From Minisyncoccota bacterium (GTDB taxonomy: Bacteria; Patescibacteriota; Minisyncoccia; Moranbacterales; UBA2206): a DNA stretch of 64,000 bases. Location: NCBI GenBank assembly GCA_031291955.1, contig JARLIA010000005.1:74034-138033 (forward strand). Reading direction: 5' to 3'. The translations under genes and the position numbers were made by a program. Within the stretch, counting starts at the first letter, position 1. The number at the start of each line of letters is the position of its first letter. The notes below the pieces were generated by a model that saw nothing but the letters and a program-made list of their open reading frames with translations, searched no databases and was not told the DNA's origin. This document shows positions 7,507 to 62,190 of this stretch, one piece after another.

Positions 7507-7867
7507 AACGAGCAAACTTTGTTAGTTGCTGCGAATTGAAAATAATACGCGGCAATTTTGATTAAAGACTTTATTAATTCAAATCAAGCTATGATTTTTG
7601 AAGCAAAAGATTCAGAAATATTTTCCGAATTGAAGTGAAATAAAAAAAGTGGCGCCTTGATGAAGAGTTGAACTTCAAAGCCAAAAACTATTTTTTGACT
7701 ACTAACCTGTAAGGCAAAAGATTTTGCGAATAATACAAATAATACTAAAGAAGAAAACAAAAAGAAGACAAAAAGCGAAAGACGGAAGAAGAAGCTGATG
7801 AAGCTATTGTATCACAAGAGTATACACGAGGACAGGGAGAAAGTCAAGTCAAGTAGGATAATCAGGC

Positions 7868-9279: not shown

Positions 9280-10839
<1,560 letters not shown>

Positions 10840-10850
10840 TTACTTAGCCT

Positions 10851-12665
10851 ATGTCGCCAAAACATATCGCCATTTTGGATTTCGGTTCGCAATATACCCA
10901 TCTTGTCGCCAGAAACATTCGCGAGTTTGGCGTTTTAGCCAAAATTTATCCGACCGACGTGCCGGTTGAAGACTTGAAAGACGCCGAGGGAGTGATTCTT
11001 TCCGGCGGTCCGCAGGCAGTGTATGTCGAAAATTCACTTACTATTGATCCGGATATTTTGAACTTAGGCGTGCCGGTCCTGGGGCTTTGTTACGGACATC
11101 AGTTGTTGGCGCATATCCTGGGCGGGGAAGTGTCGTTGGGAAAAGTAAAAGAGTTTGGTAAGGCAAAATTGACCATCTTAAAGGACAGCCTCATTTTCAG
11201 AGACATCGTCCAAGAGTCGCAGGTCTGGATGAGTCACGGTGACGCAGTCGTCAAAGTGCCGGCTGGATTTGAAATCATCGGAACGACCGTCGATTGTCCG
11301 GTGACGGCTATGGTCGATCCGGCGCGGAAATTTTACGGATTTCAATTTCATCCGGAAGTGGCGCATACGCAAGAAGGCAAAGTCATGTTGTCTAATTTTG
11401 TCCTGGATATTTGCCAAGCGGAAAAAAACTGGCGCGTTGAGAATCTGGTTGACGATCTTTTGGAGAGAATAAAAAAGCAAGTGGGTGAAAAAAAAGTTTT
11501 CATTCTTATGAGCGGCGGCGTCGATTCCAATGTGGCTTTTGCTCTCCTCACTCGGGCGCTCGGTGCTGAGCGGGTGTTGGGACTCTACATCGACACTGGT
11601 TTTATGCGGCAAGACGAGTCGGCGGAAATAAAGCGAGGGTTTGCGCTGGCCGGATTTGAAAACATTCGGACGGTGGACGCCAGCGCCGATTTTTATGCCA
11701 AATTGGAAAATATTTATGAACCGGAGAAGAAAAGAAAAATTATCGGACAAGCCTTTTTGGAAGTTAAGGATAAAATTTCTCAGAACTTAGGACTTAATCC
11801 GGACGAGTGGCTGTTGGGCCAGGGGACGATTTATCCTGACACCATCGAATCGGGCGGCACCCGAAACGCTGACAAGATCAAGACCCACCACAATCGGGTG
11901 GACGCCATTGCCGAAATGATCGAAAAAAGCTTGGTGGTGGAACCCTTGGTGGATTTCTATAAAGATGAAGTGCGGCGCTTGGGGAAATTGCTGGGTCTTC
12001 CGGCGGACCTGATCAACCGCCATCCTTTTCCCGGACCAGGATTGGCCATTCGGACGCTTTGCCGTTCATTGGACCAGGAAGAAAATCTGGTTTTAGTCGA
12101 GCGGAAAGCGGAAGAATTTATTCACAAGAATTTCAAAAATATTTTCAACCGCGTTCTGCCGGTCCGCTCAGTCGGTGTCCAGGGAGACAATCGCACTTAT
12201 TCCCATCCCGTGGCGATCTGGGGCGAGTGCGACTGGCAAAAACTCGGAGAAATTTCCGCGGCGATCACCAATAGCACTCCGGAGATAAATCGGGTGCTCT
12301 TGCTTTTGAACCCGGGAGAAAAAAACGAACTCTTGTCGTCCGGAGAAAATTCATATCTTACTCGGGAAAGAGTGGAAAAATTGCGCCGCATCGATGAAAT
12401 AGTCAATCGGAGCATTAGAGAAGTGGGAATTTACGATTCCATCTGGCAGTTTCCGGTTGTCCTAATCCCAGTCACGGACGAAAGAAAAAAAGAATCAATC
12501 GTGCTTCGGCCGATCAATTCCCGGGATGCCATGACCTTGGATTTTTTTCAAATGGATAAAAAATTGCTGGAAAAAATTACCCAAGATATCTTAGCCACCG
12601 GAGAGATTGGCTATGTCTTTTATGATCTTACTAATAAGCCGCCAGGTACGGTGGAATGGGAATAA
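10851..12665 (+). CDS. guaA: GMP synthase (glutamine-hydrolysing), long form (604 aa)
   Basis: GATase catalytic GLCYGHQL and PP-loop SGGVDS. The extended C-terminal dimerisation region ends in GTVEWE. Confidence 0.92.
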   Translation: MSPKHIAILDFGSQYTHLVARNIREFGVLAKIYPTDVPVEDLKDAEGVILSGGPQAVYVENSLTIDPDILNLGVPVLGLCYGHQLLAHILGGEVSLGKVKEFGKAKLTILKDSLIFRDIVQESQVWMSHGDAVVKVPAGFEIIGTTVDCPVTAMVDPARKFYGFQFHPEVAHTQEGKVMLSNFVLDICQAEKNWRVENLVDDLLERIKKQVGEKKVFILMSGGVDSNVAFALLTRALGAERVLGLYIDTGFMRQDESAEIKRGFALAGFENIRTVDASADFYAKLENIYEPEKKRKIIGQAFLEVKDKISQNLGLNPDEWLLGQGTIYPDTIESGGTRNADKIKTHHNRVDAIAEMIEKSLVVEPLVDFYKDEVRRLGKLLGLPADLINRHPFPGPGLAIRTLCRSLDQEENLVLVERKAEEFIHKNFKNIFNRVLPVRSVGVQGDNRTYSHPVAIWGECDWQKLGEISAAITNSTPEINRVLLLLNPGEKNELLSSGENSYLTRERVEKLRRIDEIVNRSIREVGIYDSIWQFPVVLIPVTDERKKESIVLRPINSRDAMTLDFFQMDKKLLEKITQDILATGEIGYVFYDLTNKPPGTVEWE

Positions 12666-17457: not shown

Positions 17458-17506
17458 GATTTAATTATAGCACAAGTCGTGGAACGCAAAACACGAAAGC
17501 GAAAAC

Positions 17507-17534
17507 TTGACGAGGATGGCGGTAGTGTTATAAT
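17507..17534 (+). promoter_or_regulatory. sigma-70-type promoter (TTGACG, 16-nt spacer, TGT-TATAAT extended -10)
   Basis: Direct reading. Positioned to drive the 17554 ORF and uvrB. Confidence 0.65.
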
Positions 17535-17553
17535 AACATGCGATTTTAATCTT

Positions 17554-17838
17554 ATGGAATTCCATAACATTAAAAACGAAGCCGGTTCTAATGGTTTTAT
17601 TCTCTCATCTTCGCGCTGGATAAAAAAGAATCCGAAACTGGCCGGGAATGTTCGCGACTGCGCGGATGTGACGCAATTGGTGTGCTTAGCTAATCTTGAA
17701 AATCTTAACGCCGAATATATCCGCGCCGGATTGCCGCAAAAAGAGCGATTGCTAAACCTGAACCAAAGCGCCATTTCCCAAATGAAATCGTTGGCGGACA
17801 GTCCGGGAATCAGGAAGTTGGAAAACAAAAAATTTTGA
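17554..17838 (+). CDS. hypothetical protein (94 aa), possible HTH near the C-terminus
   Basis: First good ATG after the predicted promoter. The LNLNQSAISQMK segment resembles an XRE-type recognition helix. The track version starts at a GTG inside a repeat (17479). Confidence 0.4.
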   Translation: MEFHNIKNEAGSNGFILSSSRWIKKNPKLAGNVRDCADVTQLVCLANLENLNAEYIRAGLPQKERLLNLNQSAISQMKSLADSPGIRKLENKKF

Positions 17839-17845
17839 CAAGTTT

Positions 17846-20068
17846 ATGGAAAACAAATTCAAAATATCCTCCAAATTCAAGCCCGAAGGCGATCAGCCGC
17901 AGGCGATTGAAAAATTGACCGCGGGGCTTGAGGCTGGAAAAAAGTTCCAGACGCTTTTGGGCGTGACGGGGTCGGGGAAGACTTTTACCATTGCCAACGT
18001 CATTGAAAATATCCAAAAACCGACTTTGGTCATTGCGCCCAACAAGACTTTGGCGGCGCAACTGGCGCAGGAATTTCGGACTTTCTTTCCCAAAAGCGCG
18101 GTGGAATATTTCGTTTCCTATTATGATTATTATCAGCCGGAAGCCTACATCGCTTCCTCCGACACATACATCGAAAAGGAATCCCAGATCAACGACGAGA
18201 TCGACCGGCTTCGCCACGCGGCCACCGCGGCGCTCATGAGTCGCCGCGATGTCATCATTTGCGCTTCGGTGTCGTGTATCTACGGTTTGGGCAGCCCGGA
18301 ATATTATCGGAATATTACGCTGGAATTGGCGGTGGAGGACGGTTATTCGCAGGTTCGGGCGTCCACGCCCGAACCGCATAGTCCTGGTAAAACAAAATTA
18401 TCAGTCAAATCTGAATCGAAAATTTCCGCAGATAATAAAAAATTACCAGAAATGGCAGGTTCAATCGGGACGATTGAACCTGCAAAAAAAAATAATAGGG
18501 ACGAGATTGTAAAAAAATTGATCGACATGCAATATAATCGGAGCGATGTTTTGGCGCGGGGGAAATTCCGGCTGACCGGGAATACTCTGGAAATTATGCC
18601 GCCCGGACGGGAAATTGTAACGAGGATTGAAATGGAAGGGGGCAGTATTAAAAAAATATTCGAGTACGATTTTCTTACCGGCGAGGAACTGGGAAAGCTG
18701 GAAAAAGCGGTCATCTATCCAGCCAAACATTTCGTGGTGCCCGAACCGGTGATGGAAGGCGCTTTGGAAAAAATTCAAAAAGAAATGGAAGAGCAAGTGG
18801 AATTTTTCAAGCGTCAGGGAAAGATTCTGGAAGCGGAAAGGATTTCCCGTCGGACGCGCCAGGACATTGAAATGATGAGGGAAATCGGCTACTGCAATGG
18901 AATTGAAAACTATTCCCGCTTTCTCACTGAACGCCAGCCCGGTGAACCCCCCTACACTTTGATCGATTATTTTCCCGACGATTTTCTCATGGTGATTGAC
19001 GAATCGCATGTGACCGTGCCGCAACTCAACGGAATGTATAACGGCGACCACGCCCGGAAAGTCTCACTGATCGACAACGGCTTCCGCCTGCCTTCGGCTT
19101 TTGATAACCGCCCGCTTAAATTTCCGGAGTTCGAGAAAAAAATAAACCAGCTGATTTTCACGTCGGCGACACCGGCAAAATATGAAATGGAAAAATCAAA
19201 AATAGACCCCCTCTCCCGTAATCGGGAGAGGGTTGGGGAGAGGGCAACGCGGAACTCGGCGCCCTCTCTGTCGCGAGTACGCGACATCTCTCCCGAGTAC
19301 GGGGGAGAGGGAAATATTGTGGAACAAATTATTAGGCCGACCGGACTGATTGATCCAGAGCTGGAAATCAAGCCGACCAGAGGACAGGTGAAAGATGTGA
19401 CGGAGGAGATCAAAAAAATAATCGCCCGGAAGGAGCGGGTGCTTATCACCACGCTGACTAAAAAAATGGCCGAAGACTTGTCGGATTTCTTGAAAGAGAG
19501 CGAAGTGAAAGCTGAATATCTCCATTCCGGCGTGGACACTTTGGACCGGGTGCGGATTTTGGAACAATTGCGCCGGGGAAAATTTGATGTTCTGGTCGGA
19601 GTAAATTTGCTGCGGGAAGGGCTCGATCTTCCCGAAGTTTCTTTGGTGGCGATTCTCGACGCGGACAAAGAAGGATTTTTGCGGAGCGAAACGTCGCTCA
19701 TCCAAACCATCGGCCGCGCCGCGCGGAATGTCAAAGGAAAAGTTATTCTCTACGCCGACACCATTACCGGTTCGATGAAACGAGCTATCGACGAGACAAA
19801 CCGTCGCCGGGCAATCCAGACGGAATATAACAAAAAACATCGTATCACTCCAAAAACCATCAAGAAGAAAATCCAGTCGATCGTCGACCATGAAATCAAA
19901 CCTCAGGTGACGCGCGACTTTTCCCAATTGGAATCATTGGAGGATATGGCCGGCTACATTAAACAACGCGAGCGCGAAATGAAAGACGCGGCCCGGAATT
20001 TGGAATTTGAAAAAGCGGCGATCATCCGGGACGAGATAAGTGAGTTGAGGAAGCTGCAGATAAAATAG
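17846..20068 (+). CDS. uvrB: excinuclease ABC subunit B (740 aa, with two in-frame insertions)
   Basis: Walker A GVTGSGKT, helicase motifs, EQIIRPTGL, and C-terminal UVR domain EFEKAAIIRDEISELRKL. Confidence 0.95.
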   Translation: MENKFKISSKFKPEGDQPQAIEKLTAGLEAGKKFQTLLGVTGSGKTFTIANVIENIQKPTLVIAPNKTLAAQLAQEFRTFFPKSAVEYFVSYYDYYQPEAYIASSDTYIEKESQINDEIDRLRHAATAALMSRRDVIICASVSCIYGLGSPEYYRNITLELAVEDGYSQVRASTPEPHSPGKTKLSVKSESKISADNKKLPEMAGSIGTIEPAKKNNRDEIVKKLIDMQYNRSDVLARGKFRLTGNTLEIMPPGREIVTRIEMEGGSIKKIFEYDFLTGEELGKLEKAVIYPAKHFVVPEPVMEGALEKIQKEMEEQVEFFKRQGKILEAERISRRTRQDIEMMREIGYCNGIENYSRFLTERQPGEPPYTLIDYFPDDFLMVIDESHVTVPQLNGMYNGDHARKVSLIDNGFRLPSAFDNRPLKFPEFEKKINQLIFTSATPAKYEMEKSKIDPLSRNRERVGERATRNSAPSLSRVRDISPEYGGEGNIVEQIIRPTGLIDPELEIKPTRGQVKDVTEEIKKIIARKERVLITTLTKKMAEDLSDFLKESEVKAEYLHSGVDTLDRVRILEQLRRGKFDVLVGVNLLREGLDLPEVSLVAILDADKEGFLRSETSLIQTIGRAARNVKGKVILYADTITGSMKRAIDETNRRRAIQTEYNKKHRITPKTIKKKIQSIVDHEIKPQVTRDFSQLESLEDMAGYIKQREREMKDAARNLEFEKAAIIRDEISELRKLQIK
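18352..18483 (+). repeat. in-frame palindromic module 1 inside uvrB
   Basis: GGTTCGGGCG-TCCA-CGCCCGAACC (18352-18375) and GCAGGTTCAATCG-GGA-CGATTGAACCTGC (18455-18483) flank an A-rich word region. Confidence 0.85.
19209..19309 (+). repeat. in-frame palindromic module 2 inside uvrB (four consecutive hairpins)
   Basis: CCCTCTCCCG-TAAT-CGGGAGAGGG; GAGAGGGC-N15-GCCCTCTC; GTCGCG-AGTA-CGCGAC; CTCTCCCG-AGTA-CGGGGGAGAG. Confidence 0.85.
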
Positions 20069-20075
20069 TGAAAAA

Positions 20076-20087
20076 AGTTATCCACAG
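20076..20087 (+). promoter_or_regulatory. 12-mer AGTTATCCACAG containing a perfect DnaA-box consensus TTATCCACA
   Basis: Direct reading. 8 nt after the uvrB stop and 8 nt upstream of a -35 element. Confidence 0.6.
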
Positions 20088-20095
20088 GAGGGCGC

Positions 20096-20123
20096 TTGCT
20101 CATTCTTGTCGGAGTTCTATAAT
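20096..20123 (+). promoter_or_regulatory. promoter (TTGCTC, 16-nt spacer, TATAAT)
   Basis: Direct reading. Preceded by GGCGCTTGC. Confidence 0.55.
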
Positions 20124-20219
20124 TGAAACAGGCAAGGTTTGGAAACAAAGATACAATTAATGTTTCCGCGTATGAAATGCTATTTGGCTGGAAAATTAAA
20201 TGGCATTGCAATCATAATG

Positions 20220-20243
20220 AACACGTTTTAGGCGTGTTTTTTT
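20220..20243 (+). terminator. small rho-independent terminator
   Basis: AACACG-TTTTAGG-CGTGTT followed by TTTTT. Confidence 0.5.
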
Positions 20244-20259
20244 GTTCCCCGAAAACCCC

Positions 20260-20288
20260 TTGCAATTTTTCTCGAAACGTGCTATAGT
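20260..20288 (+). promoter_or_regulatory. promoter (TTGCAA, 17-nt spacer, TATAGT)
   Basis: Direct reading. Confidence 0.6.
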
Positions 20289-20294
20289 CGGCCG

Positions 20295-20615
20295 TTAGGA
20301 TAGGAAGATGGTTCTTTCAAAACTTGGTGCGTTTCAATTCTTAAATTAAACTTAGCTGTCTCACTAAAGACAATATGTATGGATGTTATTTTTAGCGAGG
20401 CAGTTAAGTTCTCAATATAAATTTTGCTCGCAGGAGCCACTTGAGCGAAGCACTCGTGGCATTTATCCGAAAGGATTTATACCATGCGCTCGGGAAAGGC
20501 CACTTCTGGGAAGCACTCGCGGCGGAAATCTCACCGTGCCCTAAAGGAGAGAAAAATTTATCTCTGCCAAGCCTCCGGGAAAGAAAGACATGTCTTTCTT
20601 TCCCATCCTCATTTT
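20295..20615 (+). ncRNA. candidate structured RNA or long leader (about 320 nt), class unknown
   Basis: Delimited by the 20260 promoter and the perfect 14-bp palindrome GGGAAAGAAAGACA/TGTCTTTCTTTCCC (20577-20604) plus a T tract. Contains two related 25-nt hairpin units (20436-20460, 20499-20523). No convincing ORF. Confidence 0.35.
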
Positions 20616-20677
20616 TGTTTGATTATACGGAAAAAGCAGTTATGCAGTTATAAAGTTTATTAGGAAAGGAGTTTGCC

Positions 20678-20890
20678 ATGTACGCTGCAAATGCGATGAG
20701 TGAGAGTCTGGTTTTGGCGGCAGTAACACTGGCGCCTCAGCCTGAGATGGCAGCAGTTCAGGGGATGTTCTTGTGTCGCCGCTGCGATGATTGTGGCGTT
20801 AGAGCTGATTTAAAATCAGCGGAGGGCAGCAGAGTAGTTCTTCAATGCCCCCGGTGTCAGAGGGAGTACACCTTTTTCAGTAGGGAGTAA
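20678..20890 (+). CDS. small zinc-ribbon protein (70 aa)
   Basis: Strong RBS GGAAAGGAG 7 nt upstream of the ATG. CRRCDDCG...CPRCQ, two CxxC pairs. Confidence 0.5.
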   Translation: MYAANAMSESLVLAAVTLAPQPEMAAVQGMFLCRRCDDCGVRADLKSAEGSRVVLQCPRCQREYTFFSRE

Positions 20891-20970
20891 TAAAAATGAA
20901 AACATTGAGGATTGAGACCGTGCCGGTAATCGGGACTTGTCAAAAGCATTGCTGACGAGTCCCTTTAAAT

Positions 20971-20999
20971 TTGTCTAAAAATAAATACTAATGTAGAAT
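20971..20999 (+). promoter_or_regulatory. promoter (TTGTCT, 17-nt spacer, TAGAAT)
   Basis: Direct reading, upstream of the 21028 gene. Confidence 0.55.
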
Positions 21000-21027
21000 A
21001 TGGCAGTAACTAATAAGAATAAAATAA

Positions 21028-22065
21028 ATGACGAACATGACGAAAAAAATAATCCTCATCGTGGTGATTGTGATTGTCGCGCTGGGGCTGGCGGGGTATA
21101 AATTTGCCAAGCCGGATTTTTCCAAGATTTTTGCCAAAAGCCAGACGACTAAGGTTCTGACGCCAGACCAGGCTAAAGTCAAAGCCCTGGATTATATCGA
21201 CAATAATCTGGTGCAAAAGGGCACAAAAGTAAGCGTGAAAAACATTGCTGAAGCGAACGGTCTTTATAAATTGGACCTGGATGTCAGCGGCCAGACCATT
21301 ACAGCCTATATGACCGAGGACGGTTCGCAGTTTTTTCCGAACGCTATGGACATGAATGCCGCGCCGGCCAAGCCAGCGGCGGCCGATCAGCAGCAAGCCG
21401 CCCAACAGCCGATTCCCAAAACAGACACGCCAAGCGTTCAACTTTTTGTGATGAGCTATTGTCCTTATGGCACGCAGATAGAAAAAGGGATTTTGCCGGC
21501 TCTTTCCGCTTTGGGAAGCAGTGTGAAATTTAATCTTGAATTTGTCGATTATTCCATGCACAACGATGCTTCGACCGGCGATCAGAAAGAACTCAACGAA
21601 AATTTGCGTCAGTATTGCATCCAGAAGCTCCAGCCGGATAAATTGGGAACTTACTTGAATTGCTTTTTGCAAAAAGGCCAGGGCACGGAAAGCGCTTGTA
21701 TGACCCAAGCCGGTGTGGACGCGGCGCCGGTCGCGACTTGTATGACAGCGACCGACAACCAATACAGCGTCAGTAAGAACTTTAAAGATCAAAGCACCTA
21801 CAATGGTCAGTTCCCGACGTTCAAAGTCGACGAAGCGGATAATCAGAAATATAACGTTCAAGGCTCGCCGACTTTGGTGATCAATGGAGTGGTTGATCAG
21901 GCTGGAAACCGTGATTCGGCTTCGCTGCTTAAGGATATTTGTTCAGCTTTCAATACAGCACCGGCCGCTTGCAGTACCGCTAAACTTTCTTCCACCGCGC
22001 CGTCGCCGGGATTCGGCACCGGTACGGACACGAGCGGTTCAAGCGCTAGTTGCGCGACGAAATAG
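21028..22065 (+). CDS. membrane-anchored secreted thioredoxin-fold-like protein
   Basis: N-terminal TM anchor. VQLFVMSYCPYGTQ resembles a thioredoxin/glutaredoxin active-site region but has only one Cys in the motif. Low-complexity S/T/G tail. Confidence 0.5.
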   Translation: MTNMTKKIILIVVIVIVALGLAGYKFAKPDFSKIFAKSQTTKVLTPDQAKVKALDYIDNNLVQKGTKVSVKNIAEANGLYKLDLDVSGQTITAYMTEDGSQFFPNAMDMNAAPAKPAAADQQQAAQQPIPKTDTPSVQLFVMSYCPYGTQIEKGILPALSALGSSVKFNLEFVDYSMHNDASTGDQKELNENLRQYCIQKLQPDKLGTYLNCFLQKGQGTESACMTQAGVDAAPVATCMTATDNQYSVSKNFKDQSTYNGQFPTFKVDEADNQKYNVQGSPTLVINGVVDQAGNRDSASLLKDICSAFNTAPAACSTAKLSSTAPSPGFGTGTDTSGSSASCATK

Positions 22066-22094
22066 AGTCGCGAAAGCAGAGCGAATGGTTAGCG

Positions 22095-22128
22095 AATAAG
22101 AGCGAATCCTTAAAGATTCGCTCTTATT
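22095..22128 (+). terminator. rho-independent terminator embedded in a GCGAAT/ATTCGC word palindrome (22081-22150)
   Basis: AATAAGAGCGAATC-CTTAAA-GATTCGCTCTTATT 14-bp perfect stem. Confidence 0.7.
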
Positions 22129-22162
22129 ATTATTCGCTTTAATTCGCTCATCATTTGCGATT

Positions 22163-22174
22163 AGTTATCCACAG
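22163..22174 (+). promoter_or_regulatory. 12-mer AGTTATCCACAG (perfect DnaA-box consensus inside)
   Basis: Direct reading. 7 nt upstream of the lexA -35 element, same arrangement as at 20076. Confidence 0.6.
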
Positions 22175-22181
22175 CCGGCGC

Positions 22182-22210
22182 TTGCGATGATATTTAATCA
22201 GTGCTAGAAT
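22182..22210 (+). promoter_or_regulatory. lexA promoter (TTGCGA, 17-nt spacer, TAGAAT) with overlapping inverted repeat CAGTG-N9-CACTG (22199-22217)
   Basis: Direct reading. Confidence 0.55.
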
Positions 22211-22241
22211 AACACTGTAATAAACTTAGATAATAAAAAAT

Positions 22242-22919
22242 ATGCAAAACACACAATCGCTTACCGGAAAGCAAAAGAACCTGCTCGAAACGATCCGGGA
22301 ATATGTTGACCAGCGAAATGAAAATCCGACCAGTTATCGCCTGCATAAATACTTGGAAGCGCAGGGCGTGAGAGACAGTTTGAAGTCTGTCATGCAAGTC
22401 ATTGAAGCTTTGGAGAAAAAAGATCTGGTGAAACGTGACGGCGACAAGCGGCTCTATCTCATTGAGAACGGCAATTATGCCAATCTGAAAAACATTTTTT
22501 CCGTGCCGGTCTATGGCTTGGCCTCTTGCGGCGAAGCCTTGGCCTACGCCGAGGACAACGTGGATGGGTTTTTGCAAATCTCCAAAGCCTTGTTTCGCGG
22601 GGCCGACTCGGCCAAACTTTTCGCCGTCAAAACTTTGGGTGATTCGATGGACAAAGATGGCATAAACGATGGCGATTACGTTATCTTTGAAAAATACGAA
22701 TACGACAAAGGAGAGGAGCTGGAAGGGAAAATCGTGGTGGCGGTCATCAATGGAATGGCGACGATCAAGAGATATAAAAAAGTGAGCGACGAAATCATCG
22801 GTCTTTTCCCGCGCTCGAAAAACACCGTCCACCAGCCGATCTTCATCCATTCTTCCGACTCGATCCTGGTCGCCGGGATTTTCCGGAAAGTGCTGCCGGT
22901 GAAATACGTAAGTTTGTAG
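22242..22919 (+). CDS. lexA: LexA-like repressor (wHTH plus S24 peptidase domain)
   Basis: GDSMDKDGINDGDYVIF (Ser nucleophile) and ATIKRY (Lys). Putative cleavage region VYGLASCGEALAY. Confidence 0.88.
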   Translation: MQNTQSLTGKQKNLLETIREYVDQRNENPTSYRLHKYLEAQGVRDSLKSVMQVIEALEKKDLVKRDGDKRLYLIENGNYANLKNIFSVPVYGLASCGEALAYAEDNVDGFLQISKALFRGADSAKLFAVKTLGDSMDKDGINDGDYVIFEKYEYDKGEELEGKIVVAVINGMATIKRYKKVSDEIIGLFPRSKNTVHQPIFIHSSDSILVAGIFRKVLPVKYVSL

Positions 22920-23014
22920 GCTTGCTTAAAATATTTTTCCGTACTACCCTGTATTAGATAAAAGTAAATACTAAGTACCCGATCTGGGGAAATTTTTGGC
23001 GTTGGGAAATTTTT

Positions 23015-26000
23015 ATGGACAAAATCATCATAAAAGGCGCGCGGGAGCATAATTTGAAGAACGTCGACTTGGAGCTGCCGCGGAATAAATTTATCGTTTT
23101 TACGGGAATTTCTGGGTCAGGGAAGTCGACCATGGCTTTTGATACTATTTTTGCCGAGGGGCAACGGCGCTATCTCGAAAGTCTTTCCAGTTACGCTCGG
23201 CAGTTTTTGGGGCAAATGAATAAGCCTGACGTGGACTATATTGAAGGTCTGTCGCCGGCCATTTCCATCGACCAGAAAGCGGCGTCCCACAATCCGCGTT
23301 CGACGGTTGGAACGGTGACGGAAATCCACGATTATTTGCGATTGCTATATGCCAAGATCGGCCGGCCACATTGTCCGATCTGCTCCCGGGAAATTACGAA
23401 GTTGTCGACAGATGAGATTGTTGATCGGATTTTGGAGATGTGCGCCGCGAAACCTCATCCGCCCCGGAGTACTGGGGCACCTTCTCCTTATAAAGGAGAA
23501 GGAGATAATGGAAGGGGCTGTTCTATCGAAATTCTATCGCCGGTGGTTCGCCAGCGGAAAGGGGAATATTCGACGATGCTGGCTGAGATGTTCCGGCGGG
23601 GGTTTTCCCGCGCTTACGTCAATGGGGAAAAATACGAACTGTCGGCCAAGATCGGAGACGAGTTGGAATTGGCCCGCTACAAAAAACATAATATTGATAT
23701 CGTGGTAGATGAGGTGGAGATATCTAGCGACAACATTTCGCGAATATTTGAAGGAGTGGAAAAGGCGCTGAAGTTGTCGGACGGACTGGTCAAGATAAGA
23801 TCCGAAATCCGAAATACGAAATCCGAAACAATGTCAAAATCAAAAATTAAAAATTCAAAACAAAACAATACGGAAATTGTTTTCAACCAAAAACTTTCTT
23901 GTCCGATCCATGAGATTGAGTTTCCGGAGTTGGAGCCGCGTTTGTTTTCTTTCAACAGTCCGTTTGGCGCTTGTCCGGCTTGCGAAGGATTGGGAACGAA
24001 AAAAGAAATCGACCCGGCGCTGGTGGCGCCGGATAAAAACAAAACGATTGCTGAGGGTGGCATCTTCCCTTGGAGCTACAAACGGAATAACTGGCAAGGG
24101 TCGGTTCTCCGGGCGGTTTGCAATCATTTCCACATCAAAGACAATGTGCGCCTCCGTGACCTTTCGGAAGATGACCTCAACATCTTAATGTTCGGCGGAC
24201 CGGATGCGACCGATATGATAGATAAGGAAGAAGCGGAAGAAATACCCGTCACTTTGAAATCAAAAACCGGTTCAAGCTGGAAATATTACATGACCTGGCG
24301 CGGAGCGGTCGGATATCTTCAAGATCGATATTTCAAGACCGATTCGGATGCGGTGCGGGCGGATATTGAAAAATATATGTCGCAAAATCCGTGTTCGGTC
24401 TGTCACGGCGCGCGTTACAAAAAAGAAGTCTTGCTGGTGACGGTCGGCGAATCCCGCCCGCAACGCTTCGCTAACGCAAGTGTTAGCTTGCGTAGCGATG
24501 CGGGCGGGAAAAATATTGTCGAAGTCTCAAATGTGTCTGTGGCTGAGACGCTTAAATTTTTCGAAAGACTGGAATTGAATAAAAATGAGCAGATCATCGC
24601 CGGGAGAATTTTGAAGGAAATTATTAATCGCCTAGGCTTTTTGGAAAACGTGGGACTGGGATATTTGACTTTGGCCAGATCCGCGGCGACACTAGCCGGC
24701 GGGGAAGCGCAACGGATCCGCTTGGCATCGCAAATCGGTTCGGGTCTCACCGGCGTTTTGTATATTTTGGACGAACCGTCGGTCGGTCTTCACTCGCGCG
24801 ACAACACTAAATTGCTCGAGACGCTTTTTCATCTGCGCGATCTGGGAAACACGCTAATCGTGGTTGAGCACGATGAAGAGACGATGCGGGAGGCCGACTA
24901 TTTGGTTGACATCGGACCGGGAGCGGGAAAATTGGGAGGTAAAATTGTGGCGCATGGCACGCCGGTAGAAGTTATTCGCGATAAAAAATCTTTAACCGCG
25001 GCATATTTGCGGGGTGACGCGAAAATAGAAATGCCGAAATTCCGCCGGCCAGTCAAGAATAAAAAAACGATTGTTGTCCGCGGCGCGCGCGAACACAATT
25101 TGAAAAACATTACCGTCGAGTTTCCTTTAAAAGTTTTGACGTGTGTGACGGGCGTGTCCGGCTCGGGGAAATCCACATTGGTAGAGGACATCCTTTATAA
25201 AGCCTTGGCGTCAAAAATCATGCGGACGCTCGACCGGCCGGGGAAACATTCGGAGATTGTCGGCACGCAATATGTTAACAAAGTGATCATGATCGACCAG
25301 TCGCCGATCGGTCGGACGCCGCGCTCCAATCCGGCGACTTATACCGGGCTCTTTACGCCGATCCGGGAATTATTTTCCCAGACCCGGGACGCCAAATCCA
25401 AGGGTTATGGTCCGGGGCGCTTTTCGTTCAACATCCGGGGCGGACGCTGTGACAACTGCCAAGGCGACGGCCAGCTTAAAATTGAGATGCAGTTCATGCC
25501 GGATGTCTATTTGCCTTGCGATGTCTGTCACGGAAAAAGATACAACAGTGAGACCTTGAAAGTGAAATACAAGGACAAAAACATTTCCGAAGTTTTGGAC
25601 ATGACGGTCAGCGAAGGGCGCGAGTTTTTTGAGAATTTTCCGGCTATTCACGACAAGCTGGCGGTTTTGGAAGACGTCGGCTTGGGCTATATCCAACTCG
25701 GGCAGTCCGCCACCACACTTTCCGGCGGGGAAGCGCAAAGGATAAAACTGGCCACGGAACTGGCAAGGAGGGCGACCGGCGACACTTTGTATATTCTGGA
25801 CGAACCGACGACTGGCCTCCATTTTGACGACATTAAAAAACTTTTGAATGTTTTGAACCGCTTGGTCGATGCCGGCAACACAGTGGTGGTGATCGAACAC
25901 AATTTGGACGTCGTCAAAACCGCCGATTGGATCATTGACTTGGGTCCGGAAGGCGGAGAAGGCGGCGGAAAAATTATCGTTACCGGTCCGCCGGAAGAAG

Positions 26001-26062
26001 TGGCGAAATATCATAAGGAAAGCTGGACGGGAAAGTATCTGAGAGATGTATTGAAAAAGTAG
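23015..26062 (+). CDS. uvrA: excinuclease ABC subunit A (1015 aa, with several in-frame insertions)
   Basis: Two ABC ATPase modules ([18 protein letters not shown]), LSGGEAQR signatures and zinc modules CxxC. Confidence 0.95.
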   Translation: MDKIIIKGAREHNLKNVDLELPRNKFIVFTGISGSGKSTMAFDTIFAEGQRRYLESLSSYARQFLGQMNKPDVDYIEGLSPAISIDQKAASHNPRSTVGTVTEIHDYLRLLYAKIGRPHCPICSREITKLSTDEIVDRILEMCAAKPHPPRSTGAPSPYKGEGDNGRGCSIEILSPVVRQRKGEYSTMLAEMFRRGFSRAYVNGEKYELSAKIGDELELARYKKHNIDIVVDEVEISSDNISRIFEGVEKALKLSDGLVKIRSEIRNTKSETMSKSKIKNSKQNNTEIVFNQKLSCPIHEIEFPELEPRLFSFNSPFGACPACEGLGTKKEIDPALVAPDKNKTIAEGGIFPWSYKRNNWQGSVLRAVCNHFHIKDNVRLRDLSEDDLNILMFGGPDATDMIDKEEAEEIPVTLKSKTGSSWKYYMTWRGAVGYLQDRYFKTDSDAVRADIEKYMSQNPCSVCHGARYKKEVLLVTVGESRPQRFANASVSLRSDAGGKNIVEVSNVSVAETLKFFERLELNKNEQIIAGRILKEIINRLGFLENVGLGYLTLARSAATLAGGEAQRIRLASQIGSGLTGVLYILDEPSVGLHSRDNTKLLETLFHLRDLGNTLIVVEHDEETMREADYLVDIGPGAGKLGGKIVAHGTPVEVIRDKKSLTAAYLRGDAKIEMPKFRRPVKNKKTIVVRGAREHNLKNITVEFPLKVLTCVTGVSGSGKSTLVEDILYKALASKIMRTLDRPGKHSEIVGTQYVNKVIMIDQSPIGRTPRSNPATYTGLFTPIRELFSQTRDAKSKGYGPGRFSFNIRGGRCDNCQGDGQLKIEMQFMPDVYLPCDVCHGKRYNSETLKVKYKDKNISEVLDMTVSEGREFFENFPAIHDKLAVLEDVGLGYIQLGQSATTLSGGEAQRIKLATELARRATGDTLYILDEPTTGLHFDDIKKLLNVLNRLVDAGNTVVVIEHNLDVVKTADWIIDLGPEGGEGGGKIIVTGPPEEVAKYHKESWTGKYLRDVLKK
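23461..23502 (+). repeat. in-frame double hairpin inside uvrA
   Basis: GCCCCGG-AGTA-CTGGGGC (23461-23478) and CCTTCTCCTT-ATA-AAGGAGAAGG (23480-23502). Confidence 0.85.
24452..24509 (+). repeat. in-frame 58-nt long hairpin inside uvrA
   Basis: Outer stem TCCCGCCCGC/GCGGGCGGGA (10 bp). Inner stem GCTA(A)CGCAAG/CTTGCGTAGC. Confidence 0.85.
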
Positions 26063-26067
26063 AAATT

Positions 26068-27327
26068 ATGACGACCATCCTCCAAAAGCTGAAAAACCTG
26101 CCTCAATCACCGGGGGTGTATATTTTCTATGATAAAAATAGAAATATTTTGTACGTGGGAAAAGCGACGTCGCTTAAAGATAGGGTTGGTTCGTATTTTC
26201 AGAATAAGATTGGGGCGGTGCGGACGATTGAGATGTATATGAATGAAGTGACGGATCTGGAGATCAAGAAAACCGACACGGTTTTGGAAGCGTATATTTT
26301 GGAACAATCTTTGATCAAAAAACTTCAGCCGAAATATAACGCGATGGGGAAAGACGATAAGTCATTTACGTACGTACTTCTTTCTAAGGAAGAATTTCCG
26401 AGATTCGCGGTGGTACGGGAAACTGATTTGGATAGTGTAAAATCATCGCCCCGTGGGGGGCAAAAATCTTTGCCCCCCACGGCGAAGGTTTATGGTCCGT
26501 ATACGTCGAAACGGCAAATTGAGGCGGCCTTGAAAATCTTACGGAAAATTTTTCCCTATCACAACCGGCCGGAACATTCGGAGTCCCGGTGTTTTGATTA
26601 TCATCTTGGGCTTTGCCCCGGACCGTATGACGGGAAGATTTCCAAAAAAGAATACGTCAAAAATATCCGGGCGATAAAAATGATCTTGGAAGGGAAGAAG
26701 AAAGGACTTATAAACCGGATGAAAAAAGAGATGGAAGAATGTTCAGACAAGGCTGAATTTGAAAAGGCGGCGGAGGTGCGGAACAGGATTTTTGCGTTGC
26801 AACACATCCAGGACGTGGCGCTGATATCTGATCATAGAGACGCAATTAATCGCGTCTCTGTGGACGACGCAATGATGCGCATCGAAGGTTATGATATTTC
26901 CAATATTTCCGGGAAATTTGCGACTGGTTCGATGGTGGTGTTTGATAATTCAGACGGTGAAATGCAGCCGAATAAATCGCAATATCGTAAATTCAAAATC
27001 AAAAATGTTGAAGGCGCCAATGACGTGGGGGCAATGGAAGAAATGCTTACCAGGAGATTTCGGAACAATTGGCCGCGGCCGAATTTGATTTTGCTCGACG
27101 GCGGAGCCGGGCATTTGAATATGGCGCGGAAAGTCCTGCGGAATCACAAAATAGAAATTCCCTTGCTGGCGGTGGCCAAAGGGCCGGCGCGGAAAAAACT
27201 GGATCTGCGAAGTTTCGGGACCGTGCCGGAACTGCCAAAAAATATCATCGAACAAGTGAGAAACGAAGCGCATCGCTTCGCGATCAGTTATCATAGGAAA
27301 TTGAGAGGTAAATCGTTCACGGATTAA
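26068..27327 (+). CDS. uvrC: excinuclease ABC subunit C, compact form (419 aa)
   Basis: GIY-YIG (GVYIFYDKNRNILYVGKA), UVR domain (AEFEKAAEVRNRIFALQ), endonuclease domain (RIEGYDISN...EAHRFAISYHR). Ends right after that motif. Confidence 0.9.
   Translation: MTTILQKLKNLPQSPGVYIFYDKNRNILYVGKATSLKDRVGSYFQNKIGAVRTIEMYMNEVTDLEIKKTDTVLEAYILEQSLIKKLQPKYNAMGKDDKSFTYVLLSKEEFPRFAVVRETDLDSVKSSPRGGQKSLPPTAKVYGPYTSKRQIEAALKILRKIFPYHNRPEHSESRCFDYHLGLCPGPYDGKISKKEYVKNIRAIKMILEGKKKGLINRMKKEMEECSDKAEFEKAAEVRNRIFALQHIQDVALISDHRDAINRVSVDDAMMRIEGYDISNISGKFATGSMVVFDNSDGEMQPNKSQYRKFKIKNVEGANDVGAMEEMLTRRFRNNWPRPNLILLDGGAGHLNMARKVLRNHKIEIPLLAVAKGPARKKLDLRSFGTVPELPKNIIEQVRNEAHRFAISYHRKLRGKSFTD
26447..26484 (+). repeat. 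in-frame hairpin inside uvrC
   Basis: CCGTGGGGGGCAAA-AATC-TTTGCCCCCCACGG, a perfect 14-bp stem (26451-26482). Confidence 0.9.
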
Positions 27328-27407
27328 GCCTTGAAGTGGCCAATGCTTTGACATCTCTTGCCAAATCCTCTACAATACATCTCTAGTAAGCAATCTTCTT
27401 TCAAACT

Positions 27408-30221
27408 ATGCCCACTCAAAAATCTTCTCCTAAAAATACTTTCTCACTGAAGGATAAAATCGTCATCCGTGGCGCGCGGGTGAATAATTTGAAGAACATC
27501 GACGTGGACATTCCGCGGGATAAATTGGTCGTAGTGACAGGTCTTTCCGGGTCGGGGAAATCTTCTTTGGCTTTTGACGTGGTCTACGCCGAAGGCAATC
27601 GGCGGTATCTGGAAGGCATGTCGAGCTACGCCCGGCAGTTTTTGGATGTTTCGGCTAAACCGGACGTGGACAAAATAGAGAATTTGAGCCCGACCATCTC
27701 AATTGATCAAAAAAGCTTGAGTCGTTCACCTCGCTCGACGGTCGGGACGCTCACGGAAATTTACGATTATTTGCGAGTGCTCTACGCCAAAGTGGGAACG
27801 CCCTATTGTCCTCATTGTCTCTTGCCGATGGGGCGCAAAAAGAACCAGGAAATTTTGGAGGAAATTTTGGTTTTGCCGGAAAATACCCAAGTGGCGGTCC
27901 TGGCTCGGATAAAAAATGAAGGTCAGAGTGTTAAGGATATTCTCAAAAACATCAGTCAGCTTGGTTATGCCCGGGCGCGGGTTGGCGGTAAAATCGTCTT
28001 GATTGCCGACGCCTTGCTTTTTCCGGAAGAAAACTTGAGCGGCAACGTCGAAATCGTGGTTGACCGGATCAATCTCAAGAAAAAAAATCCCGATCACGAA
28101 CGGATGTTGGATTCTATTGAGACTGCTTTTAAATTGGGGAAAGGTTTTATGGCGGTCGCAATCGATAATGGTGAGAGCCGGATTTATAATCAAAATTTTG
28201 TTTGCAGCAACTGCTATTTCAAAATTTCGGAAATCACGCCCAAGAATTTTTCTTTCAACAGTCCCGAAGGCGCCTGCGAACATTGCGCGGGAATGGGTAC
28301 TATCCAGGAAGTGGACGAGGATCTGATCATTCCTAACAGAAATCTCACTTTGGCCGAAGGAGCTATTATGCCGCTCGCCAAGTCCGGCGGCCGGGCTGGG
28401 TATCTCGATACTCTCACCAAGATCGGCGAGAAAGCGGGTTTTTCCGTGAATGAACCGGCGCGGAACATTTCCAAGGAAAATTTGAAAGTTATTTTTCATG
28501 GTTTTGGTGTGCCTGGTACTCCTGGTTATTTTGAGGGAGTGGTGCCGATGATTCGAAAAAAATATACCGAAGCGGCCACTCAGACGGCCCGGACCGACAT
28601 CGAAAAATATATGCTGGAAAAAGATTGTCCCGAGTGTGGAGGCAAGCGTTTGAAAAAAGAATATTTATCCGTCTTGATGAGCGGGAAATCGATCGACGAT
28701 TTGGTCCGGATGGATATCGATACTCTCATTTTATTTTTAGAAAATTTACGGACTGCCGATTTGAGTGCCGCCAAAGCGGAAATCGTGGCGCCATTGGCAA
28801 AAGAAATGATCGCCAAAGCCAAGGCGCTCAAGAACGTCGGCTTGGAATATCTGTCACTTTCCCGCCGGGCCGATTCCATTTCCGGCGGCGAAGGTCAGCG
28901 CATCCGGCTCGCAACTCAAATTGGATCGGAACTTTCCGGTATTATCTATGTTCTGGACGAACCGTCTATCGGTCTCCATTCCCGAGACAATGAAAAGTTG
29001 ATCGACACGATGGAAAAGCTGAAAGAGAACGGCAATTCTCTGATCGTGGTCGAGCATGACAAAGACATTATCGAGTGCGCCGATTGGGTGATCGACATGG
29101 GTCCCGGGGCAGGGGAGTTCGGCGGGGAAGTTATCTTTTCCGGTTCGGTGAAAAAAATGGAGAGCGTCGCGACATCCACTGCCAAGTTCCTTTCCGGCCG
29201 GGAAAAAGTAACGGTTAAGAAGAAACCGCGAACGGCATCGAAGAACTTTTTGGAAATCCTGGGTGCCGCAGAACACAATTTGAAAAATATCGACGTCCGG
29301 ATTCCACTCGGCCGTTTTGTTGCCGTCTCGGGCGTGTCCGGTTCGGGGAAATCCACTTTGGTAACCGACATTCTGGCTCGAGAGCTGGCCCGGCATTTTT
29401 GGAAGGCTAAGAAAAATCCCGGAAAGCATGATAAAATCACTGGTCTTAACCGCTTGGATAAAGTGATTAATATCGATCAATCGCCGATCGGCCGGACGCC
29501 GCGTTCCAATGCCGCCACCTACACCGGTGTCTTTTCACTTATTCGGGAACTTTTCTCCGCCACCGAAGAGGCGAAAAAACGGGGCTACGATGCCAGTCGC
29601 TTCAGTTTTAATGTCCGGGGCGGCCGTTGCGAAGATTGCCAAGGCGACGGAACAAAAAAGATCGAGATGCATCTTTTGCCGGATATGTATGTCAAATGCG
29701 AAACTTGCCAGGGAACGCGCTATAACGCCAAGACGCTTGATATTGAATATCAGGGTGCTACCGTCGCCCAGGTGCTGGATATGAGTGTTTCCTACGCGCT
29801 TCGCTTTTTCCATAAATCGCCGCTTATCGCGGCTAAACTGAAAACGCTGGAAGAAGTCGGCCTGGGCTACATCAAACTGGGACAGAGCGCCACAAATCTT
29901 TCCGGCGGAGAAGCGCAGCGGATAAAATTGGCTACCGAGCTCGCCCGGAAATCGACCGGCAAGACTTTGTATATTTTAGATGAACCGACCATCGGGTTGC
30001 ACTTTGAAGATGTGCGGAAATTGCTTCAGGTGCTGGACGCGCTGGTCGAAAAAGGCAACACTGTTCTTGTGGTGGAACATAATTTGGACGTCATCAAGAA
30101 CGCCGACTGGGTGATTGATCTCGGGCCGGAAGGCGGAAACGGGGGCGGCGAAATTGTTTACGCCGGCGAACCGAAGGGGCTGAAGAAAGCGAAGAGGAGT
30201 TGGACAGGAAAATATCTGTAA
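27408..30221 (+). CDS. uvrA: excinuclease ABC subunit A, second paralog (937 aa, no obvious insertions)
   Basis: Same domain order as 23015..26062: [23 protein letters not shown] signatures and zinc modules. Confidence 0.93.
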
Positions 30222-62057: not shown

Positions 62058-62143
62058 GAATTTCCGCCGCCGGAATATTTCGGGAAATGGTTCTTCTTTT
62101 GGGCGGCGGCCATCGCGCATTATCTGGATGGCTGACTGCAGCT

Positions 62144-62190
62144 AAGTCCGGGCGAGGAATTTCCTCTGCCCGGACTTGTTTTATTTTTTG
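62144..62190 (+). terminator. rho-independent terminator
   Basis: AAGTCCGGGC...GCCCGGACTT 10-bp stem with an inner GAGG/CCTC stem, followed by a T tract. Confidence 0.7.

Follow-up and report, generated by a model that had tools for sequence, protein, structure and literature searches.

A probable REP-like palindromic element within the uvrB reading frame of a member of the Moranbacteria

The DNA described here is a window of 64,000 nucleotides from the genome of a Minisyncoccota bacterium (Moranbacterales, contig JARLIA010000005.1) that encodes the excision repair protein UvrB (Table 1). Homologues of this protein retrieved in a protein search are annotated as excinuclease ABC subunit UvrB of Moranbacteria and Parcubacteria, and UvrB structures of the Protein Data Bank (PDB) match it down to E = 1.7e-249 (phmmer). 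Relatives free of inserts comprise 652-653 residues, compared with 740 in the window, and the phmmer alignment to the solved structures falls into three pieces that leave out the query residues 162-209 and 452-489. These two segments are named insertion 1 and insertion 2, and their positions are called site 1 and site 2. The present work is focused on insertion 2, a series of hairpins located within the open reading frame (ORF), over which the predicted translation includes the peptides SKIDPLSR and DISPEYGGEGNIVEQIIRPTGLIDPELEIKPTR.

Table 1. Positions of the genes, inserts, hairpins and stable folds in the window, counted from its first nucleotide
Feature	Position	Strand	Description
uvrB, host gene	17846-20068	+	740 aa; from the ORF list, names of homologues and PDB matches
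Insertion 1 of uvrB	18329-18472	+	codons 162-209; two perfect hairpins
First hairpin of insertion 1	18352-18375		GGTTCGGGCG-TCCA-CGCCCGAACC
Second hairpin of insertion 1	18455-18483		13-bp stem
Stable fold in uvrB	18336		-26.3 kcal/mol (50 nt)
Insertion 2 of uvrB	19202-19315	+	38 in-frame codons, I453-N490, peptide IDPLSRNRERVGERATRNSAPSLSRVRDISPEYGGEGN
Left module	19207-19245	+	hairpin A followed by TTGGGGAGAGGGC
Hairpin A	19209-19218/19223-19232	+	perfect 10-bp stem, CCCTCTCCCG-TAAT-CGGGAGAGGG
Stable fold in uvrB	19236		-27.2 kcal/mol (50 nt)
Hairpin B	19238-19245/19261-19268	+	8 bp, arms GAGAGGGC / GCCCTCTC, 15 nt between
Variable spacer inside hairpin B	19246-19260	+	from inverted-repeat search and alignment of copies
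Hairpin C	19269-19275/19280-19286	+	7 bp, TGTCGCG-AGTA-CGCGACA; outer stem TGTC/GACA
Hairpin D segment, right end of element	19287-19311	+	inverted copy of hairpin A
Hairpin D	19288-19295/19300-19309	+	imperfect, about 9 pairs with one G-T, TCTCTCCCG-AGTA-CGGGGGAGAGGG
uvrA element	23454-23505		52 nt, AACCTCATCCGCCCCGGAGTACYGGGGCACCTTCTCCTTATAAAGGAGAAGG
Stable fold in uvrA	23461		-28.7 kcal/mol (50 nt)
Second uvrA insert	24456-24505		50-nt hairpin SRPQRFANASVSLRSDAGG; -31.6 kcal/mol
Stable fold in uvrA	24456		-31.6 kcal/mol (50 nt)
Stable fold in uvrC	26441		-33.8 kcal/mol, most stable 50-nt fold of the window
uvrC hairpin	26451-26482		CCGTGGGGGGCAAA-AATC-TTTGCCCCCCACGG; found at another uvrC site in L003
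uvrC hairpin	26836-26859		AGAGACGC-AATTAATC-GCGTCTCT; recurs intergenically in L002

Insertion 2 is flanked by ...YEMEKSK and IVEQIIRPTGL and takes the place of the one residue that separates positions 404 and 406 in the structure 9gy7_E. A previous sequence-only reading of this DNA had already described additional in-frame codons between flanks that are contiguous in canonical UvrB, and indeed the alignment to the solved structures breaks exactly there; only the size, estimated to be about 35 codons, has to be enlarged to 38. The GC content of the segment is 65%, compared with about 47% in the window. The AlphaFold2 model obtained with a 121-sequence alignment shows a confident UvrB fold with the residues 167-214 and 459-491 at pLDDT values below 50 and devoid of secondary structure; insertion 2 is thereby predicted to form a disordered loop. 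We take site 2 to be the linker between the UvrB helicase domains 1a and 3, and site 1 presumably represents the entry to the UvrA-binding domain 2, according to an architecture reportedly described by Theis et al. 1999. Outside of both inserts UvrB is highly conserved, which argues for purifying selection on uvrB, and the protein encoded in the window is presumably functional.

All four hairpins that had been recognized in the sequence-only reading could be located (A-D in Table 1). Its suggestion that they are built from the word CTCTCCC/GGGAGAG is valid for A, B and D but not for C. The word CCTCTCCC occurs five times in 64 kb versus 1.45 expected occurrences, and four of these five fall within the 100 nt of the hairpins. 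Inverted copies of 24 nt with 88% complementarity form the two ends of the insert (19207-19230 and 19288-19311); therefore the insert can also fold as one compound structure, and in the minimum-free-energy fold these two ends are paired with each other. All four hairpins are parts of a single modular element whose ends are inverted. For RNA, the minimum free energy of the insert amounts to -72.3 kcal/mol versus -44.7 +/- 3.8 kcal/mol for shuffled sequences (z = -7.2, equalled by none of 200 shuffles), and folding with DNA parameters leads to z = -7.1.

Further copies of this element were found in metagenome contigs. The scan was performed with the exact 25-nt pattern GACANCTCNCCCGAGTACNGGGGAG, which covers hairpin D together with the 3' arm of C and matches both the window and L002, and it detected 19 copies on 17 contigs. 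An nhmmer profile built from seven full copies matches the window at 19206-19314 (102.5 bits, E = 1.7e-29) and adds diverged copies in L095 (9795-9893), in L090 (4798-4870) and inside the uvrA gene of L002 (16135-16229). Up to two or three copies are present per locus of at most 15 kb. In the negative control, 1.4 Mb of distant bacterial UvrB loci with about 50% identity (L004-L083, among the matches listed), only weak matches appeared (L074 and L079). Viral contigs scanned with the element patterns gave no match and therefore no sign of a phage vector.

Alignment of the copies together with their flanks reveals an element of about 105-125 nt with a left module, a spacer and a right module of two hairpins. 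The left module (consensus CCCCCTCTCCYGTAMTCGGGAGAGGGYTGGGGAGAGGGC in L084, L085, L087, L089, L090, L092 and L093) is composed of a palindrome of 24-26 nt and GGGGAGAGGGC, the spacer is different in length and sequence in every copy, and the right module consists of GCCCTCTCTGTC, a variable stem, GAGTAC, a variable stem and GACATCTCCCCCGAGTACRGGGGAGAGGG. Full composites exist in the seven contigs just mentioned, the right module alone in L086, L095, L096 and L099, and the right module followed by the left one in L088, L094 and L096. In some copies the loop of hairpin A is GTACTC, i.e. the reverse complement of GAGTAC in D. Neither a target-site duplication nor a conserved target was seen in the flanks of 15 aligned copies. 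The GC content of the host contigs ranges from 0.32 to 0.48. Two of the hosts can be placed, namely L087, whose UvrB region is that of L002 (the two agree in the sequence surrounding the insertion and in the profile score), and the low-GC host L096 with a PGM gene 91% identical to Candidatus Moraniibacteriota, and on these identities both are assigned to Moranbacteria.

It is extremely improbable that the hairpins arose just locally by template switching or slippage during replication, with no mobile element involved, or that they are an assembly artefact. Template-switch mutations can make perfect hairpins in one step and the word GGGAGAG is present six times within 100 nt, but 17 other contigs contain, in differing contexts, modules of 50-110 nt that are nearly identical. 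Moreover, an identical 740-aa UvrB is encoded on the Logan assembly contig L001 (SRR23300978), although this assembly is possibly not independent of the source of the window. The stronger argument is the homologous insertion found in other samples (L002 and L087), which makes a local misassembly unlikely.

The genomic contexts of the copies bear on the question of translation. Of eight intergenic copy sites examined, five have the element 5-33 nt downstream of a stop codon. The ORFs on either side come from unrelated families (TPR and MscS-like; Peptidase_C39 and GtrA; glycosyltransferase; DUF559 and PGM; Lgt and AbiEii), and therefore these copies are not located in genes that were split by a broken frame; in none of the eight cases does the element separate two halves of a split gene. 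The intragenic copies are without exception in frame, stop-free and situated in long ORFs, in both orientations and in at least three frames. Besides UvrB (window and L087) their hosts are isoleucyl-tRNA synthetase (IleRS; L088 and L091, sharing the frame used in UvrB and reading PSLSRRLHRDISPEYRGEG), NAD-dependent DNA ligase (LigA; L092, in opposite orientation and reading LPSPPYSGEMSRLKRDREG...ALSPALSRLRERG), a MiaB-MiaA reading frame with two copies in two different frames (L094 and L097) and MiaB (L099). Stop codons are almost absent from the element, five of six frames being open in the copies of the window, L084 and L085, which explains how genes can harbour it either way round. A kept frame in every intragenic copy and the absence of intergenic copies from split genes are predicted by translation of the element and not by its removal, and we infer that insertion 2 is translated.

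Cleavage or editing of the mRNA in this segment, raised as a possibility in the sequence-only reading, finds no support. An intervening sequence that is spliced, bypassed by the ribosome or excised from the protein is very unlikely, even if a compact, GC-rich and strongly folded block in a housekeeping gene is superficially similar to mitochondrial GC-cluster or byp elements. Ribosome bypass occurs in T4 gene 60 and in the mitochondrial 'byp' elements of Magnusiomyces, but no take-off/landing codon pair is evident here, and removal would not impose the open frame on all intragenic copies (UvrB, IleRS, LigA, MiaA twice and MiaB). A search against Rfam at a permissive threshold (E <= 1) over 17500-27500 gave no match to an intron or ribozyme, the only hit being a spurious CrcZ elsewhere, and 38 residues are far below the size of an intein. 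An intein was thus rejected for its length, a group I or II intron for the lack of a match together with the intact frame, and translational bypass because the insert is in frame and stop-free.

The variability among relatives of UvrB was analysed in an alignment of 121 proteins of 652-740 aa including that of the window (Candidatus Moranbacteria and the Parcubacteria group within Patescibacteria, also known as candidate phyla radiation, CPR). Length variation is concentrated at two sites that coincide with the positions of insertions 1 and 2. Inserts of at least five residues are found at site 2 in 68 and at site 1 in 42 of the 121 sequences (both in 35, neither in 46). For contrast, 120 Moranbacteria homologues of PGM/PMM have 432-479 aa, mostly 450-460 aa. 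Inserts at site 2 fall in many unrelated families, at least eight, each of which resembles a translated palindrome. They include PLSRxRER...SLSRVRDISPEYRGEG (query, P0003 and P0004, with its right half alone in P0011 and P0015), HPPRSTGAPSPYKGEG, VETRHASSL, VIASEAKQS...LPRNDK, LSPRERM...LSQRERG, IPFSRREKVAEGRMRG...PLPEGEGG, NPKSQINPKSK and still further ones, and the same families appear at site 1 in other genomes. Their distribution does not track protein similarity as measured over 652 core columns: P0001 with 92.8% core identity has different elements at both sites, P0010 (86.3%) has no inserts and P0003 (85.1%) contains the same element at site 2 as the window. The locus of P0001 (L101) possesses perfect palindromes at both sites, i.e. 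TAGAGACGAGGC-AC-GCCTCGTCTCTA at site 2 (a GAGACG...CGTCTC hairpin) and a palindrome of 22-24 bp at site 1, and an empty site 2 in L102 reads ...AAT TCG ACG CAA ATC GTG GAA CAG...

The peptide of insertion 2 had been regarded in the sequence-only reading as a translated repeat and not as an evolved protein sequence. This view is corroborated by the presence of the DNA element in intergenic regions and in unrelated genes, with its hairpin units recurring elsewhere, and by the poor conservation of the peptide in orthologues, only two of 120 relatives having kept it (P0003 and P0004). Consequently, an evolved, lineage-specific functional loop of UvrB (e.g. a linker for binding of a partner) with merely incidental hairpins is a highly improbable explanation. 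It could account for the composite peptide being shared with P0003 and P0004 at about 85% core identity and for the synonymous nature of the differences in hairpin C between the window and L002, but not for the same DNA in intergenic positions and, in opposite orientation or in other frames, inside unrelated proteins. Additionally the site is hypervariable, the segment is predicted to be disordered and the closest relative, P0001, is devoid of this element.

Covariation in the stems was followed in 13 distinct right modules. In hairpin C, all of them have the same outer stem (TGTC/GACA), and the inner stem covaries. The pair in alignment columns 13-28 shows all four Watson-Crick combinations (AU four times, CG three times, GC and UA once each) and a second pair is CG in 11 and UA in two modules. 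In total, paired cells amount to 93%, compared with at most 63% when the partners are slid, and the covariation score of 0.089 (0.043 +/- 0.008 after shuffling) was reached by none of 500 shuffles. Hairpin D is mostly invariant, partly since the search pattern fixed its sequence. A compensatory pair distinguishes also the window from L002 (GTCGCG/CGCGAC versus GTCACG/CGTGAC). Intergenic copies exhibit the same pairing in hairpin C and can therefore tell a constraint on DNA or RNA from a coding constraint.

Both the covariation and the very stable structure would be compatible with hairpins that were co-opted as an RNA or DNA regulatory device in uvrB (for ribosome pausing, RNase protection or targeting, or protein binding) and are kept for this function. 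In a sliding 50-nt scan of the 64 kb, the genes uvrA, uvrB and uvrC, which make up about 10% of the sequence and stand beside a LexA-like gene, account for five of the seven most stable windows, and the intergenic copies are placed just after stop codons like those repetitive extragenic palindromes (REPs) acting on mRNA (PMC3733652). Nevertheless, we judge such a device quite improbable, since close relatives contain unrelated elements or none at site 2, so that no particular structure is required there, and since the covariation is a property of the whole family and not specific for the UvrB site. On the sense strand the hairpins are not followed by a terminator-like T run, and a terminator inside uvrB was rejected on this ground.

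Very probably, insertion 2 belongs, as one copy, to a palindromic repeat family of Moranbacteria that is dispersed, GC-rich and non-coding. Such a copy would have landed in the one-residue linker of the UvrB helicase domains 1a and 3 or would have replaced an earlier element there. A near stop-free element with a net length divisible by three would leave the gene open, and its translation would yield a disordered surface loop of 38 residues rich in Pro, Ser, Gly, Arg and Glu, which appears to be tolerated by UvrB as a linker loop and to be neutral for it. To judge from the covariation, the hairpins would be maintained at the DNA or RNA level as a feature of the element itself and not for protein function. 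Mobility would be the source of the copies. The leading candidate for a mobiliser is a tyrosine transposase of the Y1/HUH type that recognizes hairpins in single strands (the REP-associated tyrosine transposase RAYT or TnpA of IS200/IS605), since the lack of a visible target-site duplication fits better with this type than with DDE-type transposition of MITEs (miniature transposable elements with inverted repeats).

Several observations weigh against this interpretation. None of the empty sites available closely matches a filled one, hence the insertion event and the lack of a target-site duplication are tentative. The profile recognizes only one copy in the 64-kb window, and multi-copy status is putative for this genome. 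Among the 40 ORFs of the window and 18 ORFs that flank intergenic copies (58 in sum) no transposase and in particular no RAYT or IS200/IS605 gene was found. A HMMER search with the peptide in 1.84 billion cluster representatives retrieved solely the spurious, repetitive protein P0121 of 950 aa that is unlike the insert, which is a weak negative as it covers representatives at 50% identity only. Translation is deduced from the conservation of the frame. Finally, compensatory changes within the gene cannot separate a constraint on DNA or RNA from a coding constraint because they are also synonymous.

Compared with known systems, insertion 2 is a translated REP-like palindromic element that resembles the Rickettsia palindromic elements (RPEs). 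Its novelty is modest, since the phenomenon has already been described and only the family and the phylum are new. REPs tagged with GTAG or CGTC were surveyed by Di Nocera, De Gregorio and Rocco (2013, BMC Genomics 14:522; PMC3733652). In Proteobacteria and Verrucomicrobia, intragenic REPs were reported from uvrA, uvrB, uvrC and from genes of DNA ligase and tRNA synthetases, with hosts comprising excinuclease ABC subunits A, B and C, UvrD, Pol I, RecBCD, DnaE2, DNA ligase and tRNA synthetases including isoleucyl-tRNA synthetase; the RPEs of Ogata et al. were assigned to the CGTC class and mutator effects of intragenic REPs were speculated on (PMC3733652). The element of Moranbacteria has in common with intragenic REPs short GC-rich stem-loops (stems of 8-10 bp, loops of 4-5 nt) that often form inverted dimers, a location mostly just downstream of ORFs with a minority of copies in frame inside genes, and a strikingly matching set of host genes (uvrA, uvrB, uvrC, DNA ligase, isoleucyl-tRNA synthetase and other DNA/RNA enzymes). 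Hairpins A and D (24-26 nt, stems of 9-10 bp and 4-nt loops) correspond to the GC-rich imperfect palindromes of 20-40 bp that are typical of REPs, and the five intergenic sites shortly after stop codons agree with their mainly extragenic position near the 3' ends of ORFs. In contrast with GTAG and CGTC REPs, neither tag stands beside hairpin A, C or D in the consensus of 15 copies (GACG occurs only within the loop of hairpin C of some copies), and the recurrent motif is the GAGTAC loop, which is found on other stems in these genomes as well. Also the host phylum, Patescibacteria, is outside that survey and the element represents a larger fixed mosaic of four hairpins.

With RPEs, reportedly described by Ogata et al. 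2000 (Science) and by Claverie and Ogata 2003, the element shares the nature of a palindromic repeat of about 100-150 nt in frame in housekeeping genes at surface loops, although translation is deduced here, and the occurrence in small genomes of host-dependent bacteria. As in RPEs, the insertion keeps a conserved ORF open at a surface or linker position. To our knowledge a cognate transposase is known neither for RPEs nor for this element, and we know of no mobilising enzyme of CGTC REPs either. Published RPE peptides (e.g. SFLRKQES...DSRFRGND) differ from the peptide of the insert, and no kinship in sequence is expected. A further difference is that in UvrB many unrelated families re-use a site of one or two codons in one protein with a rapid turnover among close relatives. 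The uvrB homologue of R. conorii (RC0550) has REP sites at residues 537-545 and 761-769 of 838 (PMC3733652).

Two inverted short palindromes around a spacer that are able to form one long hairpin, a mosaic arrangement of modules and no visible target-site duplication are features shared with REP doublets forming hairpins (REPINs) and with bacterial interspersed mosaic elements (BIMEs). REPIN/RAYT systems and the BIMEs of E. coli are said to be treated by Bertels and Rainey 2011, Nunvar 2010 and Gilson 1991, but REPINs are reportedly essentially extragenic and no RAYT or IS200/IS605 gene accompanies the element in the ORFs inspected. MITEs (Correia/NEMIS, RUP, ERIC, Nezha) are likewise small, non-coding and strongly folding with terminal inverted repeats, here of 24 nt and 88% complementarity; unlike in MITEs, the ends are palindromes themselves, no related full-length insertion sequence was seen and the terminal inverted repeats are not combined with a target-site duplication in the 15 copies. 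Finally, mitochondrial GC clusters and byp elements are also GC-rich hairpins dispersed in an AT-richer genome including its protein-coding genes. The byps of yeast mitochondria, reportedly described as translational-bypass elements by Lang et al. 2014, disrupt the reading frame and the ribosome passes over them, whereas all copies in Moranbacteria preserve the frame and are stop-free; neither a splicing domain nor a frame-breaking insertion was detected.

For the uvrB gene this means that its odd extra segments, and by extension those of uvrA and uvrC, would be selfish palindromic DNA that is read through, and not new domains, introns or errors. The REP/RPE phenomenon would be extended to Patescibacteria, for which a full-text literature search, in a limited library that is no proof of absence, found no descriptions of such elements. 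Very small genomes could therewith hold a rich set of palindromic elements inside essential genes. Inserts of this kind inflate protein lengths, create spurious 'hypothetical' motifs and may mislead alignments, phylogenies and structure predictions of CPR bacteria. The re-use of one linker codon by many families, with a turnover visible at 93% identity, offers a natural system for distinguishing targeted from selection-filtered insertion, and it bears also on the question why excision-repair genes are recurrent hosts.

Insertion 2 is not the only palindromic insert of the window, as all other strong intragenic hairpins lie within uvrA, uvrB and uvrC (Table 1). Comparison with two syntenic relatives revealed hypervariable hairpin inserts at several sites in all three uvr genes, while no palindromic inserts were found in LexA, glucose-6-phosphate isomerase, a solute-binding protein, RNase J, TrpRS and a 345-aa protein; RNase J and TrpRS show ordinary length differences only. 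Insertion 1 is, as far as its recurrence indicates, another dispersed element family at the second hot spot of UvrB. A related copy is in frame in the MiaB-MiaA ORF of L094 (9311-9433, 71% over 135 nt) and its second hairpin recurs intergenically in L002 (7584-7630). The uvrB gene of L003 contains the 52-nt uvrA element twice, with one mismatch (10591-10652 and 11368-11421), i.e. at both hot spots, and the element is always in frame PHPPRSTGAPSPYKGEG. The second uvrA insert is absent from uvrA of L002 and L003, and no further copy was found among the loci compared. The GAGACGC...GCGTCTC family ('RDAINRVS / VETRHASSL') includes the uvrC hairpin at 26836-26859. The genes concerned are part of a repair cluster (17846-30221) with uvrB, two unannotated ORFs, a LexA-like S24 peptidase (22242-22919), uvrA (23015-26062), uvrC (26068-27327) and a second UvrA paralog (27408-30221, 937 aa) that has no strong hairpin inserts in the folding scan.

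The AGTA loop of hairpins C and D was stated in the sequence-only reading to recur in the uvrA insertion and is indeed found there as CCCCGG-AGTA-CTGGGG (23464-23479); the corresponding uvrA site of L101 (about 8830-8850) carries the hairpin GCCCCGG-AGTA-CCGGGGC. A wider search for stem-AGTA-stem units, proposed on the same occasion, yielded at least four unrelated stems in Moranbacteria loci (TGTCxxG, CTCCCCCG, GCCCCGG and CTCCTCCCCTT). Among perfect hairpins whose stems have at least 6 bp, no tetraloop is as common as AGTA (17 of 204 in the window, L002, L003, L089, L090, L095, L096, L099 and L101), compared with four of 670 in 1.4 Mb of other bacteria, part of the excess in Moranbacteria being due to how the loci were collected. 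By analogy with GTAG and CGTC this loop may serve as a family tag.

Elements are also inserted into one another. The 21-nt (7-codon) hairpin CCTGCCTACCGGACAGGCAGG with the peptide LPTGQAG / PACPVGRQ was located in L090 (285), L094 (10955) / L097 (1237), L088 (3090) and L002 (19463). It is nested in the left module of L090 and L094, is found also in uvrC of L002, and in IleRS of L088 it lies within the low-complexity stretch …FSIF-LPTGQAG-NFQFSNN…; the same nesting is visible at the peptide level in the relatives P0009 and P0063. This suggests that existing elements attract new ones, which could, as a hypothesis, explain the re-use of one codon-sized site by many families. The LigA gene of L092 (225-2573) contains, besides the copy described above, at least three further AT-rich low-complexity inserts (NNKSQITNKSQNSKFKIQNS, IQNPKLQIPNKSQNSKFKIQ and ISNQVQNPKSKTE) of the 'NPKSQI' family, which occupies site 2 of UvrB in many relatives.

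The most interesting remainder is the extreme re-use and turnover of the two UvrB sites together with the recurrent association with excision repair across distant phyla (Proteobacteria, Verrucomicrobia and Patescibacteria). It is conceivable, if rather unlikely, that the UvrB sites and the matching sites of UvrA and UvrC are preferred landing pads for palindromic elements or self-renewing sites. In this case, either a mechanistic link would connect the mobility of hairpin elements with the uvr genes or gene products, or selection would act on loops that are encoded by the elements and tune repair (mutator-like states).

Some minor features of the window may be added. Two adjoining RNase J paralogs are encoded on the minus strand (3855-5654 and 5692-7515, 599 and 607 aa) and their N-terminal extensions are divergent and apparently disordered. 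The hairpin AAGTCCGGGCGAGGAATTTCCTCTGCCCGGACTT at 62131-62180 (-32.0 kcal/mol) in the gap between an ORF ending at 62057 and an ORF starting at 62267 could be a terminator or another palindromic element. In TsaD (50700-51854, minus strand, 384 aa) the residues 26-352 cover 264 positions of the Pfam profile, which corresponds to about 60 extra residues, and two moderately stable folds are found in its gene at 51621-51675 and 51696-51755.

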